Virus record (IMG/VR): IMGVR_UViG_643348551_000004 | Direction: 5' to 3' (one strand) | Origin: a virus | Lineage: Duplodnaviria > Heunggongvirae > Uroviricota > Caudoviricetes | Length of the DNA stretch: 44,935 nucleotides | Shown: piece by piece, positions 1 to 17,029 of the stretch | Position numbering within the stretch: position 1 is the first letter of the stretch | Layout of the letters: each line of letters opens with the position of its first letter | Position numbers and translations under genes: made by a program | The notes under the pieces: generated by a model | What the model was told of the DNA's origin: nothing | Database searches by the model: none | The model's input: the letters and a program-made list of their open reading frames with translations, nothing else

Positions 1-1164
1 TTACGCCTTCTTTATATCCTCCATAATTCCAGAGTGGGACATATTTGGGACATTATCACCAAAAATGTCGTCTATTTTCCTCGCATGCTCTGTCAAATGA
101 TTAGGCGCAAGGTGAGCATACCTACGAACCATTTCTATGGACTCCCATCCGCCCATTTCCTGAAGCACTGATAATGGGACGCCTGACTGAATCAGCCAGC
201 TTGCCCAGGTATGTCTGAGGTCATGGAAACGGAAATCTTCAATTCCTGCACGACGACAAGCTGATAGCCATGATGTCTTGCTGTCGATGCGCATCTTCCT
301 GACCGCAGGCGTTGATGTTCCATCTGCTCGCTTAGCCGCCTTGGTATGTACAAACACCCATTTGTGATGCTTGCCTATTTGATCACGCAACACTTTACAG
401 GCGGTATCGTTCAGCGCCACACCAATGGCGCGGTTTGATTTGCTCTCTTCTGGATTCACCCAGGCAACTCGTCGCTGCATGTCGATTTGTTGCCATTCCA
501 GATTTATGATGTTCGACTTTCTCAGACCAGTTGCCAGCGCAAACTTGACGACAGATTTCAGTGGTTCGGGGCACTCATCAATAAGGCGTTTTGCTTCCTC
601 CTTTTCCAGCCATCTGACTCGCTTGTTTCTGACCGCTGGTATCTTGATGACAGGCGCTTTTTCCAGCCACTTCCAGTCGCGTTCTGCAGCACGGAGAATG
701 GCCTTTATCATGGCAAGATGCTTTGCCTTTGTCTGAGTTGATACTGGCTTTGGTTCATAAACAGGCAGTTCTTTACCTTTCCTGATGGCGGCCTGAACTT
801 TCTGTTTCCATATTTCTTTCGTCTTTCTGTTATGCATTCTGCTTACAGCAGAGTAAATCTTTGCCTCCGAGATATCTTTAAGCCTTATACCCTCAAAATG
901 TTCAAGCCAGAACTCAATCCGGCTTTTATCTGAATCGAGAGATTTTTTATCAGCTTTTTCCTCAAGCCATCTTAGGCAGGCCTCTTCAAAAGTGACATCA
1001 GGTAAATCCCCTAGCTTTTCTACTCGCCAGAGTTCTGCTTTTCGCTTGTCGTGCAACTCCTGAGCTTGCCGCTTGTCCTTTGTGCCAAGAGATTCCTTAG
1101 TTCGTTTCCCGCCCGGGAGCGAATACGAGGCATACCATATTTCATTTCTGCGGAAGAGTGACAT
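1..1164 (-). CDS. int: Phage integrase, tyrosine recombinase family
   Basis: 387-aa ORF with C-terminal R..HxxR..Y catalytic signature (HDLRHTWAS...VRRYAHL); first gene of the prophage, adjacent to xis; recalled as similar to DLP12 IntD. Confidence 0.92.
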
Positions 1165-1906: not shown

Positions 1907-2274
1907 CTTCCATTAATCTCTGAATTGTTGGTTAATACGCTTGAGGGTGAATGCGAATAATAAAAAAGGAGCCTGTAGCTCCCTGATGATTTTGCTTTTC
2001 ATGTTCATCGCTCCTTAAAGATGCCGTTTAACATGCCGATCGCCAGGCTTAAATGAGTCGGTGTGAATCCCTCAGCGTTACCGTTTCGCGGTGCTTCTTC
2101 AGTACGCTACGGCAAATGTTATTGATGCTCCTGTCTGGTGACAGCCATCGGGCTTGTATTATGTATAAGTTCTGATAAAAGCCTCCGATATATTAAATTT
2201 AAATAACGAAATTCATCTTCTTGATAAGTTGTGATAGCATCATTAAAAGTTTCAGTTCGTTGAGCAGGGATTAC

Positions 2275-2853
2275 ATGGTAAATCAGCAACAGCAACAGAT
2301 TAACGAAAATCTAAAAATTGAGGCAATCCGTTGGTATCAGAAGCTGCAGGAGATTACTTATCTTGAAGCAGGACAACACATGCGGGCTTTAAATCAGCTC
2401 ATGTGGCAAATCCCTAGTTTCGTAATTGCTGTCAATGGTGGGTTGTGGTATGCAACAACACTGGCAAATGAAAGTTCCCTATGGATTATCTTTGCAGTGT
2501 TAGCATTGTTTGATTTCACAACAATGATTACACTTTATCGCTTAAGGTCTTTAATTGGTTCGAAAATAGCACTACAAAAAAACATTGAAGATCCTTCAAA
2601 AAACTATATTTTAAATGAAATTACTAGAGACGCTGGATTTAAATTGCCCTCTAGCTATGATAATAAGGAAACTGGTTACATAGTAGTGTCGTGCTGGGCA
2701 GTAATGCTTATTGTTTGCTTCTTTGTTAATATTGCTGGAGTATATCATCCAAACTTGTTTTCAAAAGACATTTCACATAATACATACAAAGCAACAATTA
2801 AAAATATTGAGTCAGGATTATTTATCGAAGCAAAATCAGGATTATCAAAGTGA
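2275..2853 (+). CDS. Small integral membrane protein, about 3 predicted TM helices
   Basis: ATG at 2275 preceded by AGGGA; hydrophobic segments IPSFVIAVNGGLWYATTL, LWIIFAVLALFDFTTMITLY, GYIVVSCWAVMLIVCFFVNIAGV; AT-rich; opposite strand to the flanking early operon; a TTG at 2221 is an alternative start. Confidence 0.5.
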   Translation: MVNQQQQQINENLKIEAIRWYQKLQEITYLEAGQHMRALNQLMWQIPSFVIAVNGGLWYATTLANESSLWIIFAVLALFDFTTMITLYRLRSLIGSKIALQKNIEDPSKNYILNEITRDAGFKLPSSYDNKETGYIVVSCWAVMLIVCFFVNIAGVYHPNLFSKDISHNTYKATIKNIESGLFIEAKSGLSK

Positions 2854-3452
2854 CTTCGTGGAAGTTTTATGACAATAATGCTGATCGCTTATTTGCCGAT
2901 TATATATCACTTGATTTTTACTCTATCTTTCAGGATGTTGAAGAGTTTATTTTACAATCTAAGGGTGTCTCTTTGGATGTCGGTTCAGGTTCCGGCCGTG
3001 ATGCTGCTGCGTTAGATGAATTAGGTTATAAAGTAATAGCTGTTGAACCAAGTGAAAAGATGCGAAATTTGGCATCTTCATATTATAAATCTAACCATAT
3101 TATATGGTTAGATGATTCATTGCCTTTTCTTCATAGTGTTAAAGCAATGAATCTAAAGTTCGACCTTATTTTAGTCAGTGCTGTATGGATGCATCTTTCA
3201 AAAAAAGAGCAAAAAATCTCACTAGAGACGCTAACTGATCTTTTAACATTGAATGGGAGAATGATAATTACATTGCGCTTAGGACCTCCCGAACCAGATA
3301 GAAACATTAACGTTGTTAATACTGAGGAACTTCTTGAGTTAGCGTCTCAGTTAGGTCTGAAAACATTGCGAGTTACGTCAATAAATAAAGATAGTTTTCA
3401 ACGTAACCAGATAACTTGGCAGAAAGTTGTATTATCAAAAAATAATGAGTAA
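2850..3452 (+). CDS. Class I SAM-dependent methyltransferase, small-molecule (TehB-like) type
   Basis: Motif I LDVGSGSGRDAAAL and post-I acidic residue; about 200 aa with no DNA-MTase DPPY/target-recognition features; GTG start overlaps the upstream stop (GTGA). Confidence 0.6.
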   Translation: MTSWKFYDNNADRLFADYISLDFYSIFQDVEEFILQSKGVSLDVGSGSGRDAAALDELGYKVIAVEPSEKMRNLASSYYKSNHIIWLDDSLPFLHSVKAMNLKFDLILVSAVWMHLSKKEQKISLETLTDLLTLNGRMIITLRLGPPEPDRNINVVNTEELLELASQLGLKTLRVTSINKDSFQRNQITWQKVVLSKNNE

Positions 3453-3463
3453 ATAACTTAGTA

Positions 3464-4708
3464 TTATTCGCACAGACCGTAGCGTGAAGAGCAAACCTCT
3501 ATATCGAGACTTGCTTTTACAAGATCGTAGACCTTGCCACCGCGCCCTGTTTTTGCCCACTCTACGACTTCATAAACACCCGGAGAATTAAGATCTCCAC
3601 GAGGACCATAAAATCCTGACCAGTCGATGTGTTGCACATCAGGTTTTAGCCCAAAAAGTTGAATATTTCGACCAAGTGGCAGATTGAACTGTTTCATCCA
3701 GCGTTGGCTTATCTCTCCTACGCTCATCCAGTGTACCCATCTACTAGCAAGGCGTACCTTCAACTCCCATTGTTTGTGCTTTTTGATGTGCTCTGGCCAG
3801 CGCGCAGCCGTCTCTGCAATTTCCTCTTTGTTGCATAGCACGCAATTCATGCAGCCAACACGAGACGCACCTTGCATATAAAGTGGATTTGGCTTAATTC
3901 CGAAATATTTGTGAACTGCGAATACGTCCTCAGCCGTCCATTTGTGGAGCGGCAGGAAGTTGTAGAGAAAATCGGCGTCGCGCATATCGCGGGAAAACCT
4001 CTCATATCCAGCGCGCTTAGAGGACTCATCCGCGCGAACACCAGACCATTGTACGATAACATCGCCAGCATCAAGGAGCGGCTTTATGGCTGCGTCGAAA
4101 GCTATCTGAATTTTCAGTTCGTCTGTACAGAATCGGTCGCGCAGCATAGGGAACTTGCCATGCAGAAGGGAGCAATCCAAAAAGCTATTACCGGATGGGT
4201 GCATAACGGAAAGCGCAGCATCAAGAGCAGTTTCGAACTCAATTCCCCAGCGTTCTGCTGTGCGCTTCCAGGCTTGCCCGAATTTGGTGTCAGAACGTGC
4301 GAGGGAAGGCATGACTATGCCACGGTATGCTCCCATGCGGATCATCTGTCGTTTAGACCAGTTTTTTTGCAGATAAATTCGTCGTTTGGCAAAATCTTCT
4401 TCAGTGTAAATCCGCTTCACAACCTGCACAGGGCTACAACCGATCTGCTCATGAATGCTCCTGGCGAATTCGACAGTTAGATTATGCTCATTATCCGTGT
4501 CTGCCATAACAGCATGTACCTGTTTGCCGAATAATGTGTGCGCCACTGCGAGTGTGGCAGTGCTGTCTTTTCCTGCTGAATAATTCACGATTATCTTATG
4601 ATCATTAGGGATGCGAAATTCATTTATATATCTGTTGTAGGACTCTTCTATTTCGCGAATTTTCTTGCTGATGTCTGTTGGGACAATAATTATTGCTGCC
4701 TCGTTCAT
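3464..4708 (-). CDS. PAPS reductase / PP-loop ATP pyrophosphatase family protein (DndC-like fold)
   Basis: 414-aa ORF with N-terminal PP-loop NYSAGKDS; GGGAGG RBS; start overlaps the stop of the upstream small ORF (ATGA). Confidence 0.7.
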   Translation of the reverse strand: MNEAAIIIVPTDISKKIREIEESYNRYINEFRIPNDHKIIVNYSAGKDSTATLAVAHTLFGKQVHAVMADTDNEHNLTVEFARSIHEQIGCSPVQVVKRIYTEEDFAKRRIYLQKNWSKRQMIRMGAYRGIVMPSLARSDTKFGQAWKRTAERWGIEFETALDAALSVMHPSGNSFLDCSLLHGKFPMLRDRFCTDELKIQIAFDAAIKPLLDAGDVIVQWSGVRADESSKRAGYERFSRDMRDADFLYNFLPLHKWTAEDVFAVHKYFGIKPNPLYMQGASRVGCMNCVLCNKEEIAETAARWPEHIKKHKQWELKVRLASRWVHWMSVGEISQRWMKQFNLPLGRNIQLFGLKPDVQHIDWSGFYGPRGDLNSPGVYEVVEWAKTGRGGKVYDLVKASLDIEVCSSRYGLCE

Positions 4709-4863
4709 ACCGCCTCCCGTTTATTATTTATCTCCTCAGCCAGCCGCTGGGCTTTCAGCGGATTTCGGATAACAGAAAGCCCGGGAAATACCCAGCCTCG
4801 CTTTGTAACGGAGTAGACGAAAGTGATCGCGCCTACCCGGATATTATCGTGAGGATGCGTCAT
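4705..4863 (-). CDS. Small ORF downstream of exo (52 aa), in the position of lambda orf60a
   Basis: ATG overlaps the exo stop (ATGA) and its own stop overlaps the next start (ATGA), suggesting translational coupling; below the ORF-track length cutoff, translated by hand. Confidence 0.35.
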
Positions 4864-5540
4864 CGCCATTGCTCCCCAAATACAAAACCAATTTCAGCCA
4901 GTGCCTCGTCCATTTTTTCGATGAACTCCGGCACCATCTCGTCAAAACTCGCCATATACTTTTCATTCCGCTCAATCACGACATAATGCAGGCCTTCACG
5001 CTTCATGCGCGGGTCATAGTTGGCAAAGTACCAGGCATCTTTTCGCGTCACCCACATGCTGTACTGCACCTGGGCCATGTAAGCCGACTTTATGGCCTCG
5101 AAACCACCGAGCCGGAACTTCATGAAATCCCGGGAGGTAAACGGGCATTTCAGCTCAAGGCCATTGCCGTCACTGCATAAACCATCGGGAGAGCAGGCGG
5201 TGCGCATACTTTCGTCGCGATAGATGATCGGGGATTCAGTAACATTCACGCCGGAAGTGAATTCAAACAGAGTTCTGGCGTCGTTCTCGTACTGTTTTCC
5301 CCATGCCAGCGCCTTAGCATTAACTTCCGGAGCCACACCGGTGCAAACCTCAGCCAGCAGGGTGTGGAAGTAGGACATTTTCATGTCAGGCCACTTCTTT
5401 CCTGAGCGGGGCTTTGCTATCACGTTGTGAACTTCTGAAGCGGTGATGACGCCGAGCCGTAATTTGTGCCATGCATCATCCCCCTGTTCGACAGCTCTCA
5501 CGTCGATCCCGGTACGCTGCAGGATAATGTCCGGTGTCAT
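4860..5540 (-). CDS. exo: Lambda-type 5'-3' exonuclease (Red-alpha)
   Basis: 226 aa, recalled as near-identical to lambda Exo ([39 protein letters not shown]...). Confidence 0.95.
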
Positions 5541-6322
5541 GCTGCCACCTTCTGCTCAGTGGCTTTCTGTTTCAGGAATCCAAGAGCTTTTACTGCTTCG
5601 GCCTGTGTCAGTTCTGACGATGCGCGAATGTCGCGGCGAAATATCTGGGAACAGAGCGGCAATAAGTCGTCATCCCATGTTTTGTCCAGGGCAATCAGCA
5701 GAGTGTTAATCTCCTGCATGGTTTCATCGTTAACCGGAGTGATGTCGCGTTCCGGCTGGCGTTCTGCAGTGTATGCGGTATTTTCGACAATGCGCTCGGC
5801 TTCATCCTTGTCATAGATACCAGCAAATCCGAAGGCCAGACGGGCACACTGAATCATGGCTTTATGCCGTAACATCCGTTTGGGATGCGACTGCCACGGC
5901 CCCGTGATTTCTCTGCCTTCGCGGGTTTTGAATGGTTCGCGGCGGCATTCATCCATCCATTCGGTAACGCAGATCGGATGATTACGGTCCTTGCGGTAAA
6001 TCCGGCATGTACAGGATTCGTTGTCCTGCTCAAAGTCCATGCCATCAAACTGCTGGTTTTCATTGATGATGCGGGACCAGCCATCAACGCCCACCACCGG
6101 AACGATGCCGTTCTGCTTATCAGGGAAGGCGTAAATTTCTTTCGTCCACGGATTAAGGCCGTACTGGTTGGCGACGATCAGCAATGCGATGAACTGCGCA
6201 TCGCTGGCATCGCCTTTAAATGCCGTCTGGCGAAGAGTGGTGATCAGTTCCTGTGGGTCGACAGAATCCATGCCGACACGTTCAGCCAGCTTCCCAGCCA
6301 GCGTTGCGAGTGCTGTACTCAT
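5537..6322 (-). CDS. bet: Lambda-type ssDNA-annealing recombinase (Red-beta)
   Basis: 261 aa, recalled as near-identical to lambda Bet; overlaps exo start by 4 nt. Confidence 0.95.
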
Positions 6323-6327
6323 CCGTT

Positions 6328-6624
6328 TTATACCTCTGAATCAATATCAACCTGATGGTGAGCAATGGTTTCAACCATGTACCGGATGTGTTCTGCCATG
6401 CGCTCCTGAAACTCAACATCGTCATCAAATGCACGGGTAATGGCTTTTTTGCTGGCCCCGCAGCGTTGTAAATGATCGATGCAGAGCGATTCAAACAAAT
6501 GCTGGGGCAGGCCTTTTTCCATGTCGTCTGCCAGTTCTGCCTCTTTCTCTTCACGGGCGATCTGCTGGTAGTGACGCGCCCAGCTCTGAGCCTCAAGACG
6601 ATCCTGAATGTAATAAGCGTTCAT
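6328..6624 (-). CDS. gam: Gam, RecBCD inhibitor (98-aa short form)
   Basis: [21 protein letters not shown]... matches the C-terminal 98 residues of lambda Gam. Confidence 0.9.
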
Positions 6625-6699
6625 GGCTGAACTCCTGAAAATGGCTGTGAAAATATCGCCCGCGAAATGCCAGGCTGATTAGGAAAACAGGAAAGGGGA

Positions 6700-6906
6700 T
6701 TAGCGATTCAGGCCGTTACCGCGTCCGTCGAGAAAAACTTCCACGAGCAAATCACGGGTATAAGTGCGCTCGATGCCGCGATGCAGATAAAGCCGTCCGC
6801 GTAAATTAGCTGATGCAGTCCAGGTACCATCTTTGTGTTTGACCAGCATTCCTGGCATGACCGCACCGCGATTAACGGTCTGCGTTCCGTAATGTTGATG
6901 AACCAT
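6700..6906 (-). CDS. Kil-like small protein (68 aa), possible host cell-division inhibitor
   Basis: ATG at 6906 with AGGAG RBS and 5-nt spacer; resembles Rac KilR as recalled; the 136-aa ORF-track call uses an upstream TTG with no RBS. Confidence 0.45.
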
Positions 6907-7183
6907 AAAAACTCCTGCCCGTAAGCTGGGCTGCTGAACATATAGAGACTTCTGCGCGTATTCAGGCGGTGGATGGCCGCCGGTTGTCATAACTAAGCCG
7001 CCTCGTTGAAGCGACTGAGGTATAAAGTGTTGTGTTGATTTCAGCTGGTCACACCGACGTTCACGCGTCCGCTTCACCCCTCGCACTCCCCGGAGCCTGC
7101 TGAAATTCAAGCTGCGGATCTAAGCGGTCATCGCAACGGTGAATCAGGTGATTGCCGTATCGTTGTGTTGTTGCGACATGGGG

Positions 7184-7212
7184 ATAATAGCTATTGCTAT
7201 TGATGATATCAA
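7184..7212 (-). promoter_or_regulatory. pL-like early-left promoter (TTGATA-17-TATTAT) with operator repeats in the spacer
   Basis: On the minus strand: -35 TTGATA (7212-7207), 17-nt spacer, -10 TATTAT (7189-7184); spacer contains CAATAGCAATAGC, also found in the cI/cro intergenic region. Confidence 0.45.
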
Positions 7213-7348
7213 TACTTATTGCTATTGCTAGATGTGTTTTGATATTAAATGTTTGATAGCAAAAAGAATTAATTTTGTGACTTGCATCGCATAGCGATAA
7301 CTGAAGCGAGGTCGTGGTGGTTTTTTGAACGGTGTGTGATGAGGGGAG

Positions 7349-7381
7349 GGCAAAAGAAAACCCGGCACGGTGGCCGGGTTT
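7349..7381 (-). terminator. Rho-independent terminator ending the cI-operon, upstream of pL
   Basis: Minus-strand hairpin CCCGGC-6nt-GCCGGG extended by A/T pairs, followed by TTTTCTTTTG; about 75 nt past the 7456 stop. Confidence 0.5.
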
Positions 7382-7455
7382 AGATGATTGGTTAAGAGCG
7401 AGGGTAATGGGGAATGAAAAATCGCTTTACCTAATGCAAGGGTGCGAGCATTTTC

Positions 7456-7899
7456 TTAAGCACTAAAGAAAAAGTACATTGATAGCTTATAAAGTCCTGT
7501 TCCTGCAGCGATGATTGCTGGAACACCAAGCAATACCGCAAGCTTTGCGTCTGAAATCTTTCTATCGACAGCATCACTTGATGGCTTGTTTGTTAAGGAT
7601 TCTTTTATAGAGTCCAGACGTGCAAGAATAGTTATCATATTTTTGTCGATAGCTTTAACGTCTGTTTTAAGTTCATCAACGTCTCGTTTGATATGAGCAA
7701 CATCGGACTCCAGTTTTGCAACTTTTTCAGGCATGTTATCACTCCCAGACCCACTGCTACCACTTGATTGTAGCATGTCCCATCTTTTTCCAGATATACC
7801 TGCTAGCTGGGAAGACGCACTGGAGTGCAAACAAAATGATTCTGCCGCCTTTGCAATTTTATCATTTAGGTTTGGAGCTTCGTAATAATCGTGTTTCAT
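7456..7899 (-). CDS. Hypothetical 147-aa protein: coiled-coil plus single C-terminal TM helix
   Basis: ATG at 7899; Ser/Gly linker; heptad-like KVAKLESDVAHIKRDVDELKTDVKAIDKNMITILARLDSIKESL; hydrophobic tail LAVLLGVPAIIAAGTGLYKLSMYFFFSA; AT-rich. Confidence 0.55.
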   Translation of the reverse strand: MKHDYYEAPNLNDKIAKAAESFCLHSSASSQLAGISGKRWDMLQSSGSSGSGSDNMPEKVAKLESDVAHIKRDVDELKTDVKAIDKNMITILARLDSIKESLTNKPSSDAVDRKISDAKLAVLLGVPAIIAAGTGLYKLSMYFFFSA

Positions 7900-7911
7900 A
7901 ATTAATTACGA

Positions 7912-8175
7912 TTAGTTTGTTTTAGCTTTGTCATGCTGGTCGCGAATGAAGTCAGCCAATTTAAGCATCAATTCTTCGGGCATTCTAATGGTTGCAATGT
8001 TGTACTTTATGTTCTCAACATCGTCACTTTCATCAACAGGCCATTCAGTTACATTATGAAAAAAAGAAATTGAACCTAGGCGCTGAGAGCCGTCACCAAA
8101 CGAAGAGTAGCCAAACGCGTCGGCGTATGCATCGACACAGTTATTTGATTTTTTAACAAGTGTTTTATTACTCAT
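7912..8175 (-). CDS. Hypothetical 87-aa acidic soluble protein
   Basis: ATG at 8175 with GGAAAGG upstream; immediately downstream of cI on the same strand; stop is 12 nt before the next ORF start. Confidence 0.5.
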   Translation of the reverse strand: MSNKTLVKKSNNCVDAYADAFGYSSFGDGSQRLGSISFFHNVTEWPVDESDDVENIKYNIATIRMPEELMLKLADFIRDQHDKAKTN

Positions 8176-8257
8176 TTTTTGCCTTTCCCGTAATGTTATT
8201 TTTTATAAGGTATTTTCTTCAGCGTATTACCCAAAAGCCTCATCAACACGCGGCTGA

Positions 8258-8950
8258 TTATCCGTGTTTTCTGTACGTCTGCGGCATGCTCCCAATAACC
8301 TTACCGAATATGAATACCCGGTTCATCTCGTCTTTCTCGATCGGGTCCCACGGTGAGTAGCTCTTGTTATCAGAGATAACCAGTAGCTTATCCTTCATCA
8401 TTTGCAGGCGCTTTACATGGGCGGTGTCGTCATACAGAAACGCATAGATACCATCACCGTCGAAAGATTTAACCGTGATATCAACGAACAGCAGATCACC
8501 TGGTTCGATCGTTCCTGACATGCTGTCACCACGCACGTTAATGATGCGGATATTTTCCGCCTTCCTGCCATCGAACATGTGACGAGCATCGTCAAACGAG
8601 TATTCAACCGAGCGTAGAACTTCTACAAACTCACGGTTGATTACACCCGGCCCGGCACTGACTTCTATATCAAGAACGTCAATTTTGAAGTATTTGGAAT
8701 GGCTGACAGCAGGCTTCCCTGATTGTTGACCGTCATTTCTCATCGGGCCTATGCCTGATGAGAGCCATTCTGTTCGAACACCCAATGCATTAGCTATTTC
8801 AACAATTTTTGTTGAGCCGCGCGCGTTGCCGCTTGTCAGTCTCCAGATTGTGGGTTGAGCTACGCCAGACGCCTTTGCAAGAGCGCCTTGAGACATTCCA
8901 GATTGTTCCATCGCTAGGTTTAAGCGATCAGCAAGAGTTTCTTTTTTCAT
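8258..8950 (-). CDS. cI: CI-type prophage repressor (HTH plus S24 LexA-like autopeptidase domain)
   Basis: N-terminal HTH (SQGALAKASGVAQPTIWRL), C-terminal Ser/Lys dyad context (GDSMSGT ... VKRLQ); ATG at 8950 has no SD, consistent with a leaderless transcript. Confidence 0.85.
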   Translation of the reverse strand: MKKETLADRLNLAMEQSGMSQGALAKASGVAQPTIWRLTSGNARGSTKIVEIANALGVRTEWLSSGIGPMRNDGQQSGKPAVSHSKYFKIDVLDIEVSAGPGVINREFVEVLRSVEYSFDDARHMFDGRKAENIRIINVRGDSMSGTIEPGDLLFVDITVKSFDGDGIYAFLYDDTAHVKRLQMMKDKLLVISDNKSYSPWDPIEKDEMNRVFIFGKVIGSMPQTYRKHG

Positions 8951-8957
8951 AAGTTTT

Positions 8958-9029
8958 AATTTATACGCTTGCGTATTGATGGTCAAAACACGTTTTGCTA
9001 TTGCTTGGATTAATACGCATTGCTATTAT
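8958..9029. promoter_or_regulatory. Divergent pRM / pR promoters with OR-like operator repeats
   Basis: Minus strand: TTGACC (8986-8981)-17-TAAATT (8963-8958), 7 nt to the cI ATG; plus strand: TTGCTT (9001-9006)-17-TATTAT (9024-9029); TTGCTATTG-type repeats between and within. Confidence 0.5.
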
Positions 9030-9060
9030 TCATTCATTGCAATACCAATAGGAATTGATA

Positions 9061-9288
9061 ATGACAAATCAAACCATTCAACTCGCAATCAGTATTACAG
9101 GTAGTCAAAAACGACTGGCAGATCTATGCGGTGTAGCCCAACCCACAGTTTGGCGTTGGCTACACGGTGGCGGAATTGATGCCCGCTATGTAATGAAAAT
9201 TGTCTCAGCCACTGGTGGAAAGATTAAACCAGCAGATATTCGTCCCGACCTCGCACCATTGTTTAACGCGAGTAATTCTGCCGCCTAA
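9061..9288 (+). CDS. cro: Cro-like HTH regulator
   Basis: 75 aa, HTH QKRLADLCGVAQPTVWRW; AGGAA RBS 8 nt upstream; divergent from cI. Confidence 0.75.
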   Translation: MTNQTIQLAISITGSQKRLADLCGVAQPTVWRWLHGGGIDARYVMKIVSATGGKIKPADIRPDLAPLFNASNSAA

Positions 9289-9312
9289 ACTGCGGCGTTA
9301 ACTGATAAGGCA

Positions 9313-9858
9313 ATGACTATGCAACCACTTACATACCAACAGACTAGCGGATTTAGCCCGACTGCGGTGATAAATCGTTCTCAAACAAAACAGGCGCCAG
9401 GCCACGAAAAAATCCGTGATGCCGTTCGCGCCTGGTCGGCTGCAGATAATCAGGATGTTGTTGCCGCACTCATTGTGAATGAGTATCGGGAGCAGGGCGG
9501 CGGCACCATCGATTTCCCTGATGATGTCAGCCGTGCACGCCAGAAGCTGTTCCGCTTCCTCGATAACAAATTCGATTCTGAAAAATACCGAAATAACGTG
9601 CGTGAACTGACCCCGGCAATTCTGGCGGTACTACCGCTGGAATATCGCGGCCACCTGGTTGAGCAGGATAGCTTCATGGCTCGGCTGGCTGAAATGGAAA
9701 AGGAACTCAGTGAGGCAAAACAGGCTGTCATTCTCAACGCACCACGCCACCAGAAACTGAAGGAAATTAGTGAAGGTATTGTGTCGATGTTTCGTGTGGA
9801 CCCAGATCTGGCTGGTCCATTGATGGCGATGGTTACTACCATGCTGGGGGCGATATGA
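9313..9858 (+). CDS. Regulatory protein in the cII position, possibly YdaT/CII-like
   Basis: 181 aa between cro and O; not lambda cII; a better-spaced start is ATG 9319; family assignment from recall only. Confidence 0.45.
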   Translation: MTMQPLTYQQTSGFSPTAVINRSQTKQAPGHEKIRDAVRAWSAADNQDVVAALIVNEYREQGGGTIDFPDDVSRARQKLFRFLDNKFDSEKYRNNVRELTPAILAVLPLEYRGHLVEQDSFMARLAEMEKELSEAKQAVILNAPRHQKLKEISEGIVSMFRVDPDLAGPLMAMVTTMLGAI

Positions 9859-9944
9859 CAGGTTCAGAAATGGCGAAAGCCGGTCTGCTGGAACAGAACC
9901 GACTTTCAGGTGCAAATCGTAACACACTCATTGCGGGAGGAATT

Positions 9945-10874
9945 ATGGCAAACACTGCTGAGATATTCAATTTTCCAGTGCCGGATGCGGCACAAAAGGA
10001 GCCGCGCGTGGCAGATCTCGATGATGGTTATACGCGCATTGCAAATGAGTTGCTGGAAGCTGTGATGCTGGCCGGATTAACACAGCACCAGCTTCTGGTC
10101 TTCCTAGCTGTCATGCGCAAAACATATGGCTTTAATAAAAAACTGGATTGGGTGAGCAACGAGCAACTGTCCGAATTGACCGGGATATTGCCGCACAAGT
10201 GTTCTGCTGCAAAAAGTGTTCTGGTAAAGCGTGGGATTTTGATTCAGAGCGGGCGGAATATCGGTATTAATAATGTGGTCAGTGAATGGTCAACATTACC
10301 CGAATCAGGTAAGAAAAATAAAGTTTACCTGAAAGAGGTAAATTTACCTGAATCAGGTAAGAAAAGTTTACCCAAATCAGGTAAAGGCGTTTACCCGAAT
10401 CAGGTAAACACAAAAGACAAACTAACAAAAGACAATATAAAACCTTTTTCGTCCGAGAATTCTGGCGAATCCTCTGACCAACCAGAAAACGATCTTCCTG
10501 TGGTGAAACCAGATGCTGCAATTCAGAGCGGCAGCAAGTGGGGGACAGCAGAAGACCTGACCGCCGCAGAGTGGATGTTTGACATGGTGAAGACCATCGC
10601 GCCATCAGCCAGAAAACCGAATTTTGCAGGGTGGGCTAACGATATCCGCCTGATGCGTGAACGTGACGGACGTAACCACCGCGACATGTGTGTGCTGTTC
10701 CGCTGGGCATGCCAGGACAACTTCTGGTCCGGTAACGTGCTAAGTCCGGCCAAACTCCGCGACAAGTGGACCCAACTCGAAATCAACCGTAACAAGCAAC
10801 AGGCAGGCGTGACAGCTAGCAAACCAAAACTCGACCTGACAAACACAGACTGGATTTACGGGGTGGATCTATGA
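9945..10874 (+). CDS. O: Replication initiator O, hybrid: non-lambda N-terminal/iteron domain, lambda-type C-terminal domain
   Basis: ATG at 9945 with GGGAGG RBS; C-terminal about 130 aa recalled as matching lambda O; iterons lie inside the gene. Confidence 0.85.
   Translation: MANTAEIFNFPVPDAAQKEPRVADLDDGYTRIANELLEAVMLAGLTQHQLLVFLAVMRKTYGFNKKLDWVSNEQLSELTGILPHKCSAAKSVLVKRGILIQSGRNIGINNVVSEWSTLPESGKKNKVYLKEVNLPESGKKSLPKSGKGVYPNQVNTKDKLTKDNIKPFSSENSGESSDQPENDLPVVKPDAAIQSGSKWGTAEDLTAAEWMFDMVKTIAPSARKPNFAGWANDIRLMRERDGRNHRDMCVLFRWACQDNFWSGNVLSPAKLRDKWTQLEINRNKQQAGVTASKPKLDLTNTDWIYGVDL
10296..10408. repeat. Replication origin iterons (five 18-19 bp inverted-repeat units) inside O
   Basis: TTACCCGAATCAGGTAAG-type units at about 10296, 10324, 10343, 10366, 10390, followed by an A-rich tract (about 10410-10450). 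Confidence 0.7.
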
Positions 10875-11572
10875 AAAACATCGCCGCACAGATGATTAAC
10901 TTTGACCGTGAGCAGATGCGTCGGATCGCCAACAACATGCCGGAACAGTACGACGAAAAGCCTCAGGTACAGCAGGTAGCGCAGATCATCAATGGTGTGT
11001 TCAGCCAGTTACTGGCAACTTTCCCGGCGAGCCTGGCTAACCGTGACCAGAATGAACTGAACGAAATCCGCCGCCAGTGGGTTCTGGCTTTCCGGGAAAA
11101 CGGGATCACCACAATGGAACAGGTTAACGCTGGAATGCGCGTAGCCCGTCGGCAGAATCGACCATTTCTGCCATCACCCGGGCAGTTTGTTGCATGGTGC
11201 CGGGAAGAAGCATCCGTTATCGCCGGACTGCCAAACGTCAGCGAGCTGGTTGATATGGTTTACGAGTATTGCCGGAAGCGAGGCCTGTATCCGGATGCGG
11301 AGTCTTATCCGTGGAAATCAAACGCGCACTACTGGCTGGTTACCAACCTGTATCAGAACATGCGGGCCAATGCGCTTACTGATGCGGAATTACGCCGTAA
11401 GGCCGCAGATGAGCTTGTCCATATGACTGCGAGAATTAACCGTGGTGAGGCGATCCCTGAACCAGTAAAACAACTTCCTGTTATGGGCGGTAGACCTCTA
11501 AATCGTGCACAGGCTCTGGCGAAGATCGCAGAAATTAAAGCTAAGTTCGGACTGAAAGGAGCAAGTGTATGA
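10871..11572 (+). CDS. P: Replication protein P (helicase loader)
   Basis: 233 aa, recalled as near-identical to lambda P (MKNIAAQMINFDREQMRRIANNMPEQYDEKPQ...). Confidence 0.95.
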   Translation: MKNIAAQMINFDREQMRRIANNMPEQYDEKPQVQQVAQIINGVFSQLLATFPASLANRDQNELNEIRRQWVLAFRENGITTMEQVNAGMRVARRQNRPFLPSPGQFVAWCREEASVIAGLPNVSELVDMVYEYCRKRGLYPDAESYPWKSNAHYWLVTNLYQNMRANALTDAELRRKAADELVHMTARINRGEAIPEPVKQLPVMGGRPLNRAQALAKIAEIKAKFGLKGASV

Positions 11573-11871
11573 CGGGCAAAGAGGCAATTATTCATTACCT
11601 GGGGACGCATAAGAGCTTCTGTGCACAGGACGTTGCCGCGGTAACAGGCGCAACCGTAACCAGCATAAATCAGGCTGCGGCTAAAATGGCGCGGGCAGGA
11701 ATCCTGGTCGTTGATGGTAAGGTCTGGCGAACGGTGTATTACCGGTTCGCTACCAGAGAAGAACGGGAAGGAAAGGTGAGCACGAATCTGATTTTTAAGG
11801 AGTGTCGCCAGAGTGCCGCGATGAAACGCGTATTGAGGGTATATAAAAGAACATCAATGGGTACACAATGA
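11569..11871 (+). CDS. ren: Ren (Rex-exclusion resistance) protein
   Basis: MTGKEAIIHYLGTH... recalled as lambda Ren; overlaps the P stop. Confidence 0.85.
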   Translation: MTGKEAIIHYLGTHKSFCAQDVAAVTGATVTSINQAAAKMARAGILVVDGKVWRTVYYRFATREEREGKVSTNLIFKECRQSAAMKRVLRVYKRTSMGTQ

Positions 11872-11938
11872 TGAAACAGGTGAGTTGATTTCAAACTGTA
11901 GTACAATTCTCTCCAGTTTGAACAGGAAAGAATATGCT

Positions 11939-12271
11939 ATGAACCCTTATATTTATCTTGGTGGTGCAATACTTGCAGAGGTCATTGGTACAACCTTAAT
12001 GAAGTTTTCAGAAGGTTTTACACGGTTATGGCCATCTGTTGGTACAATTATCTGTTATTGTGCATCATTCTGGTTATTAGCTCAGACGCTGGCTTATATT
12101 CCTACAGGGATTGCTTATGCTATCTGGTCAGGAGTCGGTATTGTCCTGATTAGCTTACTGTCATGGGGATTTTTCGGCCAACGGCTGGACCTGCCAGCCA
12201 TTATAGGCATGATGTTGATTTGTGCCGGTGTGTTGGTTATTAATTTATTGTCACGAAGCACACCACATTAA
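11939..12271 (+). CDS. emrE: SMR-family multidrug efflux protein EmrE
   Basis: 110 aa, MNPYIYLGGAILAEVIGTTLMKFSEGF... recalled as E. coli EmrE (a DLP12 prophage gene). Confidence 0.9.
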   Translation: MNPYIYLGGAILAEVIGTTLMKFSEGFTRLWPSVGTIICYCASFWLLAQTLAYIPTGIAYAIWSGVGIVLISLLSWGFFGQRLDLPAIIGMMLICAGVLVINLLSRSTPH

Positions 12272-12302
12272 AAATAATTTGTTTCTAAACGACTAAAATA
12301 TG

Positions 12303-12345
12303 GAGGCTCTTATATTTATATGAGCCTCGTTTTATGCTTTTTGTT
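12303..12345 (+). terminator. Rho-independent terminator after emrE
   Basis: Hairpin GAGGCTC-loop-GAGCCTC followed by GTTTTATGCTTTTT. Confidence 0.5.
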
Positions 12346-12527
12346 AATGTCTTTATTTTTTTATGTATTCTTTTGTGCTTTCAAGATTATGGCGTAAGAA
12401 AATTGCAATACGATTATTGTTGTATATTCAAGATAATGTGACCTTAATTGTCTTTTTAAATAAAAATTAAACAAAAATTATATCTCACCACTAAGGTTTA
12501 TAAAAGCATACGTTAGCAGGTGTCACC

Positions 12528-14054
12528 ATGAAAAAAGCCATAGCATATATGCGATTTTCATCACCAGGTCAGATGTCTGGCGACTCATTAAACCGACAGA
12601 GAAGACTTATTGCTGAATGGTTAAAGGTAAATAGTGATTATTATCTTGATACCATAACATATGAAGATTTAGGATTAAGTGCATTCAAAGGAAAGCATGC
12701 ACAATCAGGAGCTTTTTCGGAATTTTTAGATGCTATAGAGCATGGTTATATATTGCCAGGAACTACATTGTTAGTTGAAAGTCTGGACAGACTTTCAAGA
12801 GAAAAAGTCGGTGAAGCGATTGAGCGTCTGAAATTGATTTTGAATCACGGTATTGATGTTATAACTCTTTGCGATAATACAGTCTATAATATTGACTCTT
12901 TGAATGATCCATATTCATTAATAAAAGCCATACTTATAGCACAAAGGGCAAATGAAGAAAGCGAGATAAAGTCAAGTCGGGTTAAATTATCATGGAAGAA
13001 AAAACGGCAGGATGCACTGGAGTCAGGCACGATTATGACGGCGTCTTGTCCGAGATGGCTCTCCTTAGATGACAAAAGAACGGCTTTTGTTCCAGACCCC
13101 GACAGGGTGAAAACTATTGAGCTAATTTTTAAACTCAGGATGGAAAGGCGCTCATTGAATGCAATAGCCAAGTATTTAAATGATCATGCTGTAAAGAATT
13201 TCTCAGGAAAAGAAAGTGCATGGGGACCTTCTGTAATTGAAAAATTATTAGCGAATAAAGCTCTGATAGGTATATGCGTACCTTCATATCGTGCAAGAGG
13301 TAAAGGAATAAGTGAAATCGCTGGCTATTATCCCAGAGTCATATCAGATGATTTGTTTTACGCTGTGCAGGAAATTCGGTTGGCACCTTTTGGTATTAGC
13401 AATAGTAGCAAAAACCCTATGTTGATAAATCTACTTCGAACAGTTATGAAGTGCGAGGCTTGTGGTAATACCATGATTGTTCATGCGGTATCTGGAAGTT
13501 TGCATGGCTATTATGTTTGTCCGATGAGAAGACTGCATCGATGTGACAGGCCATCAATAAAGAGAGATTTGGTTGATTATAATATCATTAATGAGTTGCT
13601 TTTTAATTGTAGTAAAATCCAACCAGTTGAAAACAAGAAAGATGCTAATGAAACTTTAGAGTTGAAAATTATTGAGCTCCAGATGAAAATTAATAATTTA
13701 ATTGCTGCATTATCTGTTGCGCCTGAAGTTACCGCTATAGCAGAAAAAATCAGAGTATTAGATAAGGAATTACGAAGGGCTTCTGTATCATTAAAAACTT
13801 TGAAGAGTAAAGCGGTGAGCTCACTTGGTGATTTTCATGCTATTGACTTAACCAGTAAAAATGGGCGAGAGCTATGTCGTACACTTGCCTATAAAACATT
13901 CGAAAAAATCATAATCAATACAGATAATAAAACCTGTGATATCTATTTTATGAATGGCATTGTTTTTAAACACTATCCTTTAATGAAAACAATATCCGCC
14001 CAGCAGGCGATAAGTACTCTCAAATATATGGTTGATGGTGAGGTTTATTTTTGA
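12528..14054 (+). CDS. ybcK: Large serine recombinase (resolvase-type N-terminal domain, recombinase domain, Cys-rich zinc ribbon)
   Basis: 508 aa; N-terminal AYMRFSSPGQ catalytic-serine motif; Cys cluster CEACGN...CPMRRLHRC; AT-rich; recalled as DLP12 YbcK. Confidence 0.85.
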   Translation: MKKAIAYMRFSSPGQMSGDSLNRQRRLIAEWLKVNSDYYLDTITYEDLGLSAFKGKHAQSGAFSEFLDAIEHGYILPGTTLLVESLDRLSREKVGEAIERLKLILNHGIDVITLCDNTVYNIDSLNDPYSLIKAILIAQRANEESEIKSSRVKLSWKKKRQDALESGTIMTASCPRWLSLDDKRTAFVPDPDRVKTIELIFKLRMERRSLNAIAKYLNDHAVKNFSGKESAWGPSVIEKLLANKALIGICVPSYRARGKGISEIAGYYPRVISDDLFYAVQEIRLAPFGISNSSKNPMLINLLRTVMKCEACGNTMIVHAVSGSLHGYYVCPMRRLHRCDRPSIKRDLVDYNIINELLFNCSKIQPVENKKDANETLELKIIELQMKINNLIAALSVAPEVTAIAEKIRVLDKELRRASVSLKTLKSKAVSSLGDFHAIDLTSKNGRELCRTLAYKTFEKIIINTDNKTCDIYFMNGIVFKHYPLMKTISAQQAISTLKYMVDGEVYF

Positions 14055-14165
14055 GTAATAATCACTTTTTCAACCGTGCTATAGTAAGAAAGTTAGGTAA
14101 GTACAATAAAATTATCTATCCTGAACGAAGCGTCCTGAGCTATGGTTTTACTATAGGGACTGCCA

Positions 14166-14495
14166 ATGGATGCTGGCGTTCTCGTTCTAGCAGTTCAACA
14201 ATCCCCAATCACAAAACAATTCACTGATAACGAACTTTGCACACTCGCCTGGTTATGGCGAGCAGGGAATGTGATGTTAATTGCCTACCAGAACGTTACT
14301 CATCTTCTTCAGGATGCGGAGCATGGTGAAGCTGGTCACTTCACTTCCATCGAGCAAGAATATCCCCAGATACTCAACAGAGCGCGAGCAATCCTCGTCC
14401 GAGAAACGGCACATGTAAAACTTCAGCCGTGGCAGGATGATAAGTGGAGTCGAGTATTGCCACATTTGCGTCAGAATGTTATTAAACAACGTTAG
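14166..14495 (+). CDS. Hypothetical protein (109 aa)
   Basis: ATG with AGGGA RBS; nin-region position; no recognisable motif. Confidence 0.5.
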   Translation: MDAGVLVLAVQQSPITKQFTDNELCTLAWLWRAGNVMLIAYQNVTHLLQDAEHGEAGHFTSIEQEYPQILNRARAILVRETAHVKLQPWQDDKWSRVLPHLRQNVIKQR

Positions 14496-14554
14496 CTACT
14501 GTGTCTCTCCAATTTAGCTAACATATGGATTCATAAGAAAAAGGAGCTTTTGCC

Positions 14555-14806
14555 ATGATGTCCTTCACCAAATGTAAATTAATGCACAGCCATAAAACTA
14601 GCGTAAATGCAGCGCTCTTGGACGATACGAAATTAGTTGTAGAGAGGGATCTCCATTTTCTTCGTGAGTTATACATATCAAGCCCAGAAGAATTTGTCGG
14701 ACATTGGGTTTATGCAAATGAGCCAATATTTCATGAACATCCACTGTCTGTTGGCCTTTCTGGTATTGTCTATCACAAGGTTATTGATGAAATTGAAAAA
14801 TCATAA
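14555..14806 (+). CDS. Hypothetical protein (83 aa)
   Basis: Strong AAGGAG RBS 8 nt upstream of the ATG; no recognisable motif. Confidence 0.55.
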   Translation: MMSFTKCKLMHSHKTSVNAALLDDTKLVVERDLHFLRELYISSPEEFVGHWVYANEPIFHEHPLSVGLSGIVYHKVIDEIEKS

Positions 14807-14881
14807 TCAATAAGCAATAATACCGTCACCGTTGGCCTGAACACCCTGCGGTGACTTCTGCGCATATGATTGGGAAATTAT

Positions 14882-14980
14882 ATGCGACCACAAGTTAAAC
14901 TCCTCGCCTTGCCACAGATGCAGAAATGCACCTGCGATATTTTGCATCCAGCGTTTGATCTCTGCGGAGGTGAAGCGTGA
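14882..14980 (+). CDS. ylcH: Small ORF (32 aa), YlcH-like position upstream of ybcN
   Basis: Hand-translated [32 protein letters not shown]; stop overlaps the ybcN GTG start (GTGA). Confidence 0.35.
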
Positions 14981-15432
14981 ACCTCCCACAAGATGGTATC
15001 AAATTGCATCGCGGTAACTTCACCGCTATCGGTCGGCAGATCCAGCCTTATCTGGAGGACGGCAAATGCTTTCGCATGGTGCTTAAACCGTGGCGCGAGA
15101 GACGCAGTCTTTCCCAGAATGCACTCAGCCACATGTGGTACAGCGAAATCAGTGAATACCTCATCAGCAGGGGTAAAACGTTCGCTACTCCAGCTTGGGT
15201 AAAAGATGCTCTCAAACACACATATCTCGGTTATGAAACCAAAGACCTGGTTGATGTCGTAACCGGTGATATCACCACTATCCAGTCGTTACGCCATACC
15301 TCCGATCTTGATACCGGAGAGATGTATGTCTTCCTGTGTAAGGTTGAAGCCTGGGCGGTGAATATTGGCTGCCACCTGACTATTCCGCAGAGCTGCGAGT
15401 TCCAGCTGCTCCGTGACAAGCAGGAGGCGTAA
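14977..15432 (+). CDS. ybcN: YbcN-like protein (NinB-region, DNA-binding)
   Basis: 151 aa, GTG start, same length and position as DLP12 YbcN. Confidence 0.8.
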
Positions 15433-15602
15433 TGGCTACACCGCTTATTCGTGTCATGAACGGACACATCTACAGAGTATCAAATCGTCGTAAGCGTAAG
15501 CCTGAGCCGAAGCCATCCGAAATACCAACACTGCTCGGATATACCGCTAGCCTGGTTGATAAAAAATGGTTGCGACTGGCAGCAAGGAGGAATCATGGCT
15601 GA
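15432..15602 (+). CDS. ninE: NinE
   Basis: 56 aa hand-translated ([28 protein letters not shown]...); start overlaps the ybcN stop (TAATG); below the ORF-track cutoff. Confidence 0.7.
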   Translation: MATPLIRVMNGHIYRVSNRRKRKPEPKPSEIPTLLGYTASLVDKKWLRLAARRNHG

Positions 15603-15885
15603 TTTGAGAAAAGCAGCGCGTGGTCGGGAATGCCAGGTAAGAATCCCTGGCGTATGTAATGGCAATTCTGAAACGTCTGTACTGGCACATATCCGGCTGG
15701 CTGGATTGTGCGGTACCGGTATCAAACCGCCAGACCTGATTGCCACCATTGCATGTTCTGCCTGCCACGACGAAATCGACCGCCGCACACATTTTGTCGA
15801 TGCTGCATATGCAAAAGAATGCGCGCTGGAAGGTATGGCGAGAACACAGGTTATCTGGCTGAAAGAGGGGGTTATTAAGGCGTGA
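15595..15885 (+). CDS. ybcO: YbcO-like protein (DUF1364, putative nuclease)
   Basis: ATG at 15595 with AGGAGG RBS; 96 aa with Cys/His-rich region. Confidence 0.8.
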
Positions 15886-16244
15886 ATACCTACAGCATCA
15901 CATTACCCTGGCCTCCGAGCAATAATCGCTATTACCGCCATAATCGCGGGCGCACGCACATCAGCGCAGAAGGGCAGGCATACCGCGATAACGTCACCCG
16001 AATCATTAAAAACGCAATGCTGGATATCGGCCTGGCTATGCCAGTGAAAATCCGTATTGAGTGCCACATGCCGGATCGCCGTCGCCGTGACCTGGATAAT
16101 CTGCAAAAAGCCGCTTTTGACGCACTCACCAAAGCAGGTTTCTGGCTGGATGATGCTCAGGTCGTTGATTACCGCGTTGTGAAGATGCCTGTTACCAAAG
16201 GTGGGAGGCTGGAACTGACCATCACCGAAATGGGGAATGAATGA
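15882..16244 (+). CDS. rusA: Holliday-junction resolvase RusA
   Basis: 120 aa, [24 protein letters not shown]... is the RusA family signature. Confidence 0.9.
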
Positions 16245-16381
16245 TGTTTGAGTTTTATATGGCAGAACTTCTTCGCCACCGCTGGGGGCATCTGCGCTTA
16301 TATCGTTTCCCCGGTTCTGTTTTGACCGATTACCGAATACTGAAGAATTACGCCAAAACCCTGACAGGAGCAGGAGTATGA
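16241..16381 (+). CDS. ylcG: YlcG-like small protein (46 aa)
   Basis: ATG overlaps the rusA stop (ATGA); hand-translated [25 protein letters not shown]... Confidence 0.5.
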
Positions 16382-16466
16382 AGTCAGAGATAACAATCAA
16401 CTAATACTGTTTTGTTGATTTTTGCTTGTAATTGGCGTTCTGGTCTGATTTTTGTGGAGTAAGTTG

Positions 16467-16850
16467 ATGCGTGATATTCAGATGGTTCTTGAGCGTTGGG
16501 GAGCGTGGGCGGCTAATAATCATGAAGATGTGACCTGGTCGTCCATTGCCGCCGGTTTTAAGGGATTAATTACTTCAAAAGTAAAATCTCGCCCGCAATG
16601 TTGTGACGATGACGCGATGATTATTTGCGGGTGCATGGCCCGTCTGAAAAAGAACAACAGCGATTTGCACGATTTATTAGTAGATTATTATGTAGTCGGT
16701 ATGACATTCATGTCACTGGCAGGTAAGCATTGCTGCTCTGATGGTTATATCGGGAAAAGGTTACAGAAGGCTGAGGGCATAATTGAAGGGATGTTAATGG
16801 CATTAGATATCCGGTTAGAGATGGATATCGTTGTTAATAACTCTAATTAA
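16467..16850 (+). CDS. quuD: Late-gene antiterminator Q
   Basis: 127 aa with Cys-rich zinc-binding region ([16 protein letters not shown]); precedes the late promoter/terminator region. Confidence 0.85.
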
Positions 16851-16991
16851 TATGCCAATTGTTTACTAAAAATTATTAAAAATGGGGCGTTGAGACGCCC
16901 CCAAAAATAAAGGGTAATATATAACAGAAGGTTTATATAGTTAGAAGCAAGGTTGTGCTTCTAAAGGAAGTGGCTTGAGGGAGCCACTTAT

Positions 16992-17029
16992 ATGTTGGGG
17001 AGGCAACGCCTCCCGCAACATATCTTTTT
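16992..17029 (+). terminator. Strong rho-independent terminator downstream of Q, tR'-like
   Basis: About 13-bp imperfect stem (ATGTTGGGGAGGC/GCCTCCCGCAACAT) followed by ATCTTTTT; preceded by the GGGGCGT-TGAG-ACGCCCC hairpin at 16884-16901. Confidence 0.5.

Follow-up and report, generated by a model that had tools for sequence, protein, structure and literature searches.

A composite untranslated leader in place of N and nut in the leftward early operon of a lambdoid Escherichia coli prophage

Lambda N/nut and HK022 put are the textbook routes for extending early transcription in lambdoid phages. Here we analyze the leftward early operon of the virus record IMGVR_UViG_643348551_000004, a stretch of 44,935 nucleotides (nt) that we call the window, which is a lambda-like, lambdoid E. 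coli prophage of a Bievrevirus-like lineage with a DLP12-like right arm. Our subject is the untranslated leader of its kil-gam-bet-exo operon, 270 nt at 6907..7177 on the minus strand. The pL promoter at 7184..7212 (minus strand) consists of a -35 element TTGATA (7212-7207), a 17-nt spacer and a -10 element TATTAT (7189-7184), and with 10/12 matches it was the top site of positions 6000..10000 in a sigma-70 consensus scan. Two operator-like palindromes of the type AATAGC-N4-GCTATT (7186..7226) lie over it, one without mismatches covering the -10 element (7186-7201) and one with two mismatches covering the -35 element (7211-7226). A further copy of this palindrome (9012-9027) lies over the probable pR promoter and before cro, and three of the four matches in the whole window fall at pL and pR. 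These shared operators identify pL as the repressor-controlled leftward early promoter. The predicted transcription start (+1) is at about 7177/7176, approximately 270 nt before the ATG (6906) of the Kil core. Both the promoter and the length of the leader agree with a sequence-only reading of this DNA made before our analysis.

The first gene of the pL operon is kil (6700..6906, minus strand), whose 68-amino-acid (aa) core begins MVHQHYG and matches phrog_294 (E = 3e-38). It is followed on the same strand by gam (6328..6624), bet (5537..6322) and exo (4860..5540); annotated relatives also have kil in first place after the immunity region. A longer open reading frame (ORF) of 136 aa, starting with TTG (7110..6700, minus strand), is an open frame and not a gene. 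The Kil match covers only residues 60-135 of this frame, the last 76, and the 18 nt upstream of the TTG (accgcttagatccgcagc) have no Shine-Dalgarno sequence, as the sequence-only reading had pointed out. Gene callers more often begin at ATG 6990, giving a 96-aa form with 472 member sequences, while PGAP calls the 68-aa form. Among 80 Kil homologues, most of them with precomputed Pfam PF27398, the divergent ones start with MVHQHYG or MIHQHYG, and what lies ahead of this start is unrelated. Since ATG 6990 is base-paired within a conserved hairpin described below and TTG 7110 is without a ribosome-binding site, the 96-aa and 136-aa calls are probably wrong. The conserved protein is the 68-aa MVHQHYG form.

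The sequence-only reading had found neither an N-like ORF nor a boxA-like GCTCTT in the leader, and both observations hold. Apart from frames entering kil, the leader has no closed ORF of at least 12 aa, and Pfam and PHROGs scans of the 27 ORFs of both early operons gave no N-type protein. The sole antiterminator recognized in these scans is a Q-type protein (16452..16850, plus strand; PF06530, E = 4e-53; phrog_79) encoded upstream of the lysis genes, a feature shared with lambda-type systems; it is the late system and no stand-in for N. Neither strand of 6907..7177 contains GCTCTT, GCTCT or CTCTT; the best boxA-like 8-mers there carry two mismatches, and the 30 boxA-like matches in the whole window compare with 29.7 expected by chance from shuffles. 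A combined boxA-plus-hairpin scan found nothing in the leader and no candidates on the plus strand of 9035..16460; it yielded just three sites, each with two mismatches, within gam/bet. On the rightward side the gap between the cro stop codon and the next ATG is 24 nt and O overlaps that next gene, leaving no space for nutR or putR. Lambda N/nutL/nutR, like P22 gene 24, phage 21 N and phi80 N, occupies the same place, the first segment after a repressor-controlled pL with kil-gam-bet-exo downstream, whereas the window has no N ORF, boxA, boxB or room for nutR and its operon opens with an untranslated leader followed by kil. An exact lambda-type boxA (CGCTCTTAA) does occur on the minus strand (7399..7391), with the immunity terminator hairpin (7381..7358) starting 9 nt further downstream. 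It lies upstream of pL and thus outside the pL transcript.

HK022 (putL/putR) and HK639 (a putL-like RNA) are likewise N-less lambdoid phages with a conserved RNA right after pL. We searched for such RNAs with a covariance model built from eight sequences (HK022 putL and putR, HK639 putL, and relatives from phiEt88, UPF_BP1, CobraSix, S9-5 and PdC23), run without filters. The positive controls scored 94 bits (HK022 putL), 92 bits (HK639 putL) and 51 bits (HK022 putR), while the window's best match, within cI, reached 9.7 bits (E = 0.55). A blastn-short comparison with put likewise returned nothing beyond chance 8-11-mers. As a set, the invariant put motifs GAACGGCGCG, GUCGG, GGCGGGYUCAGGA and CGGCAAU are not present in the window, which in contrast to HK022 also has neither a second copy past pR nor a Nun-like gene. 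At the level of sequence and covariance modelling, an HK022-type put element is excluded for the window. A second, putL/putR-like copy of the leader was sought in the rest of the window with blastn-short; only chance 9-12-mers were returned and no leader element is repeated in the pR operon. Permissive Rfam searches (E up to 10) over 6000..14000 and gathering-threshold searches of the whole window left the leader empty, the sole nearby match being isrJ-like and located on the immunity-operon terminator. The leader and the region downstream of cro were therefore covered for boxA/boxB and put-like RNA, and none was found. The sequence-only reading had proposed that a different antitermination strategy replaces N; no substitute early antiterminator turned up in these searches. 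The "M3-like RNA" of HK639 was also considered as a candidate and rejected, as it gave chance matches only in the window.

The leader itself is strongly conserved. It is 96-97% identical in 16 phage genomes, and the whole pL-leader-kil block (309 nt) is 96-97% identical in the plaque-isolated phages 4A7, 4C10, Perceval, PhiR30_1, IdasGreatGrand and Turner. Fifteen phage genomes have a larger block, extending from kil to the immunity terminator, at 92-97% identity. Of 5426 complete E. coli genomes, 2209 (about 41%) carry the 5' half of the leader, without annotation. An alignment of 39 distinct family sequences comprises two immunity types, which differ nearly everywhere upstream of 7177 and are alike from 7176 on; upstream, both retain TTGA of the -35 element and T at 7189 and 7184. 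Homology across the immunity types thus begins at 7176, which coincides with the predicted transcription start. An exact 21-mer of the 5' leader had no matches in GTDB species representatives, so that E. coli prophages and phages are the only places where this segment was found; the 150-nt 5' segment has no relatives outside its family. The diversity of the 5' leader is too low for covariation and dN/dS tests.

The leader is a composite, consisting of a 5' stem-loop at the predicted +1, about 100 nt, and then a structured RNA module. The 5'-terminal stem-loop (7130..7177, minus strand), in which GUCGCA (7177-7172) pairs with UGCGAU (7135-7130), is predicted only and is not significant alone (z = -1.2). 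Similar 5' stem-loops (CAUCGACAAC..GUUGUC) begin the short kil leaders of other Enterobacteriaceae prophages. Another predicted hairpin (7089..7118, minus strand; UCCG-C-AGCUUG / CAGGCU-C-CGGG with an 8-nt loop) is weakly indicated (z = -1.2); by our own reading of the fold, a C/U polymorphism at 7111 preserves its pairing. The fold of the whole leader is not unusually stable (z = 0.2). Cross-species Kil loci, drawn from 23 species representatives, include prophages of Citrobacter, Kluyvera and Silvania with leaders of 76-176 nt from a promoter-like site to kil and no ORF between; these have a similar 5' stem-loop at the start and a common junction motif at the end. Together with the conserved leader, the recurrence of this promoter-short leader-kil arrangement in several genera shows that an N-less pL operon starting with kil is a common natural design. 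In two viral contigs of the window's family (L131 and L060), another promoter region is joined at about position 7143 and the first ~35 nt of the leader are missing, so the left arm of the 5' stem-loop is either dispensable or replaced. We also observed a different, G+C-rich insert of ~90 nt (CACCCAGGCAUGGAGCCCACGAAGUAGCCGCCGACGGCAUACGAAUAGUCGGAUGAGGUGG) in the pL-to-kil leader of Leclercia and Citrobacter youngae prophages (L139 and L147), ~60-220 nt upstream of kil.

The downstream part of the leader, 7026..6946, holds a module of two hairpins that folds at -23 kcal/mol in the window (z = -3.0). Hairpin 1 (6988..7024, minus strand) is a conserved structured RNA with an outer helix (C/U)AUA/UAUG, which takes in the AUG at 6990-6988, and an inner 9-bp stem GUCGCUUC.../...GAGGCGGC. 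All 35 distinct variants share one fold, with an inner stem of 8-10 bp and 26 distinct arm pairs. A MAFFT alignment (A3) placed the phi80- and HK639-type arms one column off, which limits the formal pair count to the 26 equal-length variants; in these, 96.9% of cells are standard pairs as compared with 27-44% in slid-partner controls. Compensatory double changes occur at five pairs, and the covariation of 0.31, against 0.14 in shuffles, was reached by 0 of 500 shuffles. The G-U pairs in the stem speak for the RNA of pL sense. Hairpin 2 (6965..6981, minus strand; GGCGG-CCAUCCA-CCGCC) carries a terminator annotation in HK639, in which it is followed by a U-tract; the window has no such tract (UGAAUACG). 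Its sequence is highly conserved in a sample that was picked by that very sequence. A variant, GCGG-CUAUCCAA-CCGC (L158), retains the stem, and phi80 has CCGAC with one pair broken. The remaining 6907..6945 (minus strand; AUGUUCAGCAGCCCAGCUUACGGGCAGGAGUUUUU) form the junction and the kil translation-initiation region, which by eye is a diverged copy of the motif ACGTTCCGCCAGCCTGGCGACAAGGGCAAAGAGG upstream of kil in the cross-species prophage loci L138-L147; phi80 and HK225 were compared for this motif as well.

The module is shared with many lambdoid phages. Positions 7026..6946 are homologous to the phi80, HK225 and HK639 records (83-100% identity over 28-62 nt). In phi80 the match lies downstream of N, at a place annotated as "t-L1 regulatory signal", and the HK639 match lies over one of two annotated "terminator" features. 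A viral-contig scan with the most conserved 23-mer of the module returned 120 loci (L016-L135), and most of these have the order stop codon of a variable gene, G+C-rich terminator hairpin with U-run, CAUACC, hairpin, UUAGUU, AUG and hairpin 2. The elements from CAUACC through hairpin 1, UUAGUU and AUG to hairpin 2 (GGCGG/CCGCC) have the same order in the window as in phi80, HK225 and HK639. In those phages, the module directly follows an intrinsic terminator closing N or other first genes, whereas the window has neither that terminator nor those genes and the module is joined to the 150-nt leader. Hairpin 1 with its CAUA/UAUG outer helix stands beside hairpin 2 in the window, yet not right after a terminator U-tract: the preceding AAAUCAACACAACACUUUAUACC contains no hairpin and no terminator in our scans. 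About 150 nt from the predicted +1 take the terminator's place, and the join falls within the U-tract of the relatives. A covariation-supported hairpin that is absent from Rfam thus identifies a junction that recurs in pL operons across many lambdoid phages. We considered the small ORF MTTGGHPPP as a conserved protein and rejected it: its AUG belongs to the hairpin 1 helix, its tails are of varying length and sequence, and the frame in which the conserved GAAGTCTTGT is read changes between variants, placing the conservation at the nucleotide level. In the same junction (also at L005 1340-1480 and L006 2480-2640) the sequence continues GAAGUCUUGU, then ACGUUCCG..GGCGAYAAGG before the next gene, and the junction as a whole is absent from Rfam.

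The sequence-only reading had allowed that an arginine-rich ORF might emerge from an alternative start, and formally one does. A micro-ORF, MKRTRERRCDQLKSTQHFIP (7018..7077, minus strand), opens at GTG 7077 with an in-frame arginine-rich (V/M)KRTRERRCDQLKS, 9 nt downstream of a GGGGAG that is partly covered by the 7089..7118 hairpin; in the window it runs in frame into kil, and it is a doubtful gene. It could encode a genuine arginine-rich peptide, be it a minimal N-like RNA-binding factor or what remained of N after a deletion that also took tL1. Its RERRCDQ resembles the arginine-rich motif RERRAEKQ of lambda N, and the module junction at the U-tract of the relatives' terminator is what a deletion would leave. 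The start codon is kept in 39 of 39 variants (GTG in 34, ATG in 5), and four of its seven substitutions are synonymous, third-position changes, the other three being non-synonymous. This proportion is not significant, however (hand-computed binomial ~0.1-0.2), and the end of the frame varies, with TAG 7017 in 13/39 variants and continuation into kil in the others, while a 5-nt insertion is found in 3/39. A tblastn search of 50,697 phage records (E up to 10) returned the same 16 phages only, and a 5.8-billion-protein search gave no relatives beyond frameshifted or fused family artefacts. A boxB-like hairpin partner is lacking, as is a boxA. Lambda N carries NusA- and polymerase-binding regions, for which 20 residues are too few. 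The conserved-coding tests and the search for phage-protein relatives thus go against the alternative-start ORF: as a coding gene the micro-ORF is unproven, as an N analogue it is unlikely, and a functional arginine-rich peptide or N stump seems distinctly improbable to us.

The absence of N had also been read as a sign of a partially defective early program, N and nutL having been deleted and early expression crippled in the window prophage. Two features lend themselves to this idea: the hairpin module usually follows a first gene and its terminator, and the right arm resembles that of DLP12, which is a defective prophage. Against it, the same pL-leader-kil architecture, 96-97% identical, is carried by inducible, plaque-forming phages. 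Bievrevirus 4C10 and 4A7 are inducible by DNA-damaging bacteriocins and give plaque-forming units on E. coli C (bioRxiv 10.64898/2026.05.26.727859). A leader shared with inducible plaque-formers points to a normal rather than a damaged design. Moreover, the leader is conserved from the predicted +1, is too common and has variants too coherent for decay. We therefore reject a crippling deletion as very improbable.

Terminators on the early paths bear on whether antitermination is needed at all. On the pL strand we found no convincing intergenic intrinsic terminator from pL to exo, which fits transcription without antitermination. Besides the immunity terminator, the hairpin-plus-U sites on this strand are within ORFs, weak (6656, in the kil-gam gap, 5 bp), hairpin 1 itself or a structure just before the kil ATG; the best of them, a hairpin at 1984..1966 with a U-tail from 1964, is inside a small conserved ORF. 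The pR-to-Q path differs in having a good-looking intrinsic terminator after emrE (12303..12344, plus strand), with a GAGGCUC/GAGCCUC stem (GGAGGCUC..GAGCCUC) followed by GUUUUAUGCUUUUU, between P/ren and the nin genes/Q. The ren-emrE-recombinase block including this terminator is 97-99% identical in the N-less plaque-formers 4A7, 4C10, Perceval and Turner, so that the terminator, present as it is in viable relatives, is no mark of a defective prophage.

One possibility is that the leader or its 5' 150 nt, possibly together with hairpins 1 and 2, belongs to a new class of cis-acting RNA that modifies the elongating polymerase by antitermination or anti-Rho action, put-like in its effect and unrelated to put in sequence. 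Like putL, the leader begins where transcription does and is retained in different immunity types; the element is very common, and the lineage is viable though without another early antiterminator and with at least one intrinsic terminator in an early operon. The details of the leader argue otherwise. Its fold is no better than that of shuffles, its 5' hairpins reach z of only about -1.2, and the family is too uniform for covariation testing. The pL operon has no strong intergenic terminator to overcome, and no copy or relative of the leader lies downstream of pR, the site of the only clear terminator. Related prophages manage with leaders of 76-176 nt that do not have the segment, and two family members are missing its first ~35 nt. 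We consider such an RNA unlikely. A weaker version of this proposal would see hairpins 1 and 2 as an undescribed regulatory RNA family common to many lambdoid pL operons, whatever its function.

Taken together, we favor a natural, N-independent early-left operon, to which we give a probability of about 0.6, where the composite 5' untranslated region (UTR) acts after transcription start, via mRNA stability and control of translation or processing before kil. Upon inactivation of the repressor, RNA polymerase would run from pL into the recombination genes without dedicated processive antitermination. This would be possible because the terminator found ahead of the module in relatives with N or put is missing from the lineage, and because there is no good intergenic intrinsic terminator between pL and exo. 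Timing would then be set by the repressor, Cro and Q alone. The 5' stem-loop may stabilize the mRNA. Hairpin 1, in which an AUG and a GAG(G) element are sequestered, may be a control point for translation or processing immediately before the toxic kil. The same functional logic is known from lambda nin5 deletion and byp mutants, which grow without N once the pR-to-Q terminators are removed or bypassed; those are laboratory mutants, whereas the design in the window is natural and widespread, and one moron terminator, that after emrE, is still on its pR-to-Q path.

Several observations weigh against an operon of this kind. The emrE terminator is one of these: either it is leaky, or a downstream promoter feeds Q, or there is undetected antitermination, and its position on the path to Q keeps some room for a cryptic antitermination mechanism. 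Rho-dependent terminators are beyond prediction by the tools used. Approximately 150 nt (7177..7030) with no assigned function keep their sequence from the predicted +1 on in both immunity types, and the start codon of the micro-ORF within the leader is kept in every variant.

The leader may instead serve mainly as an attenuator that silences the toxic kil in lysogens, by Rho-dependent termination and/or masked translation signals, much as kilR of the Rac prophage is silenced by Rho and NusG. The Kil protein inhibits FtsZ, hairpin 1 sequesters translation signals as noted above, and C exceeds G in parts of the leader (ratio ~1.4-1.5). The Rac prophage of E. coli K-12 offers a parallel: it is likewise N-less, with a long structured 5' UTR before an FtsZ-inhibiting kil gene and beside a YdaS/YdaT-type right operon, and its kilR 5' UTR is the source of the KilS small RNA, annotated there by RefSeq (L136 2906-3003). 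OxyS action and cell-cycle arrest have been tied to kilR (PMC5793797). The parallel has limits, as KilR of Rac and Kil of the window are different proteins and a blastn comparison of the window leader with the K-12 kilR 5' UTR/KilS (word size 7) gave chance matches only (E = 0.7 or worse). Also, the Rac leader, read by eye, contains terminator-like hairpins with U-runs and an annotated small RNA, whereas the window leader has no terminator that would close a small RNA. The C/G ratio is modest, too, and it falls to 0.44-0.64 in the G-rich middle of the leader. We find attenuation as the main role rather doubtful; it is compatible with an N-independent operon and no competitor to it.

These results describe a lineage with neither N/nut nor put, whose leader is present, at least in its 5' half, in a large fraction of E. 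coli genomes and whose members include inducible gut phages. If it is true that no antiterminator is needed, the delayed-early step would be dispensable in nature. If one is needed, the device would be a yet unknown one.

Two moron ORFs come after the CI-like S24 repressor (8258..8986) on the same strand, and the intrinsic terminator of this immunity operon (7358..7381, minus strand; -14.8 kcal/mol, UCUUUU tail) then lies upstream of pL. The probable pR promoter (TTGCTT-17-TATTAT, 9001..9029, plus strand) was inferred from its position; it is below the scan threshold and is unscored. On the plus strand the early genes are a YdaS-type cro (ATG 9061 to 9288), a YdaT/CII-like gene of the YdaT family (from 9313), O, P and ren, and the DLP12-like right arm continues with emrE, a YbcK-like recombinase, ninB, rusA, the Q-family antiterminator and an nmpC-like porin. 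A hairpin, GCCGC-CUAAACU-GCGGC (9280-9296, plus strand), overlaps the cro stop codon and is similar to the GCCGCCUAACCAGCGGC terminator ahead of the hairpin module in phi80-type pL operons, but it has no U-tract, being followed by GUUAACUG.

The early-left side extends to int (1..1164, minus strand), with a DksA-like gene near int on the same strand. A PAPS-reductase-like protein of 414 aa (phrog_424) is encoded within the early-left operon (3464-4708, minus strand). Two ORFs of 210 and 200 aa on the plus strand (2221-3452), one with a weak tRNA-methyltransferase-like match, lie between exo and the DksA-like and int genes, opposed to the pL operon, so that pL transcripts reaching int must cross both in antisense. 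As in DLP12, the nmpC-like porin gene is located between Q and the lysis genes on the minus strand (region 16884-17029, 17040-18137). The Q-porin gap is flanked by strong hairpins, GGGGCG..CGCCCC at 16884-16901 and one downstream of Q at 16996..17029 (stem 16996-17024, then U5). The only Rfam family above its gathering threshold in the window is IS009 (44015-44213, plus strand, 226.7 bits).

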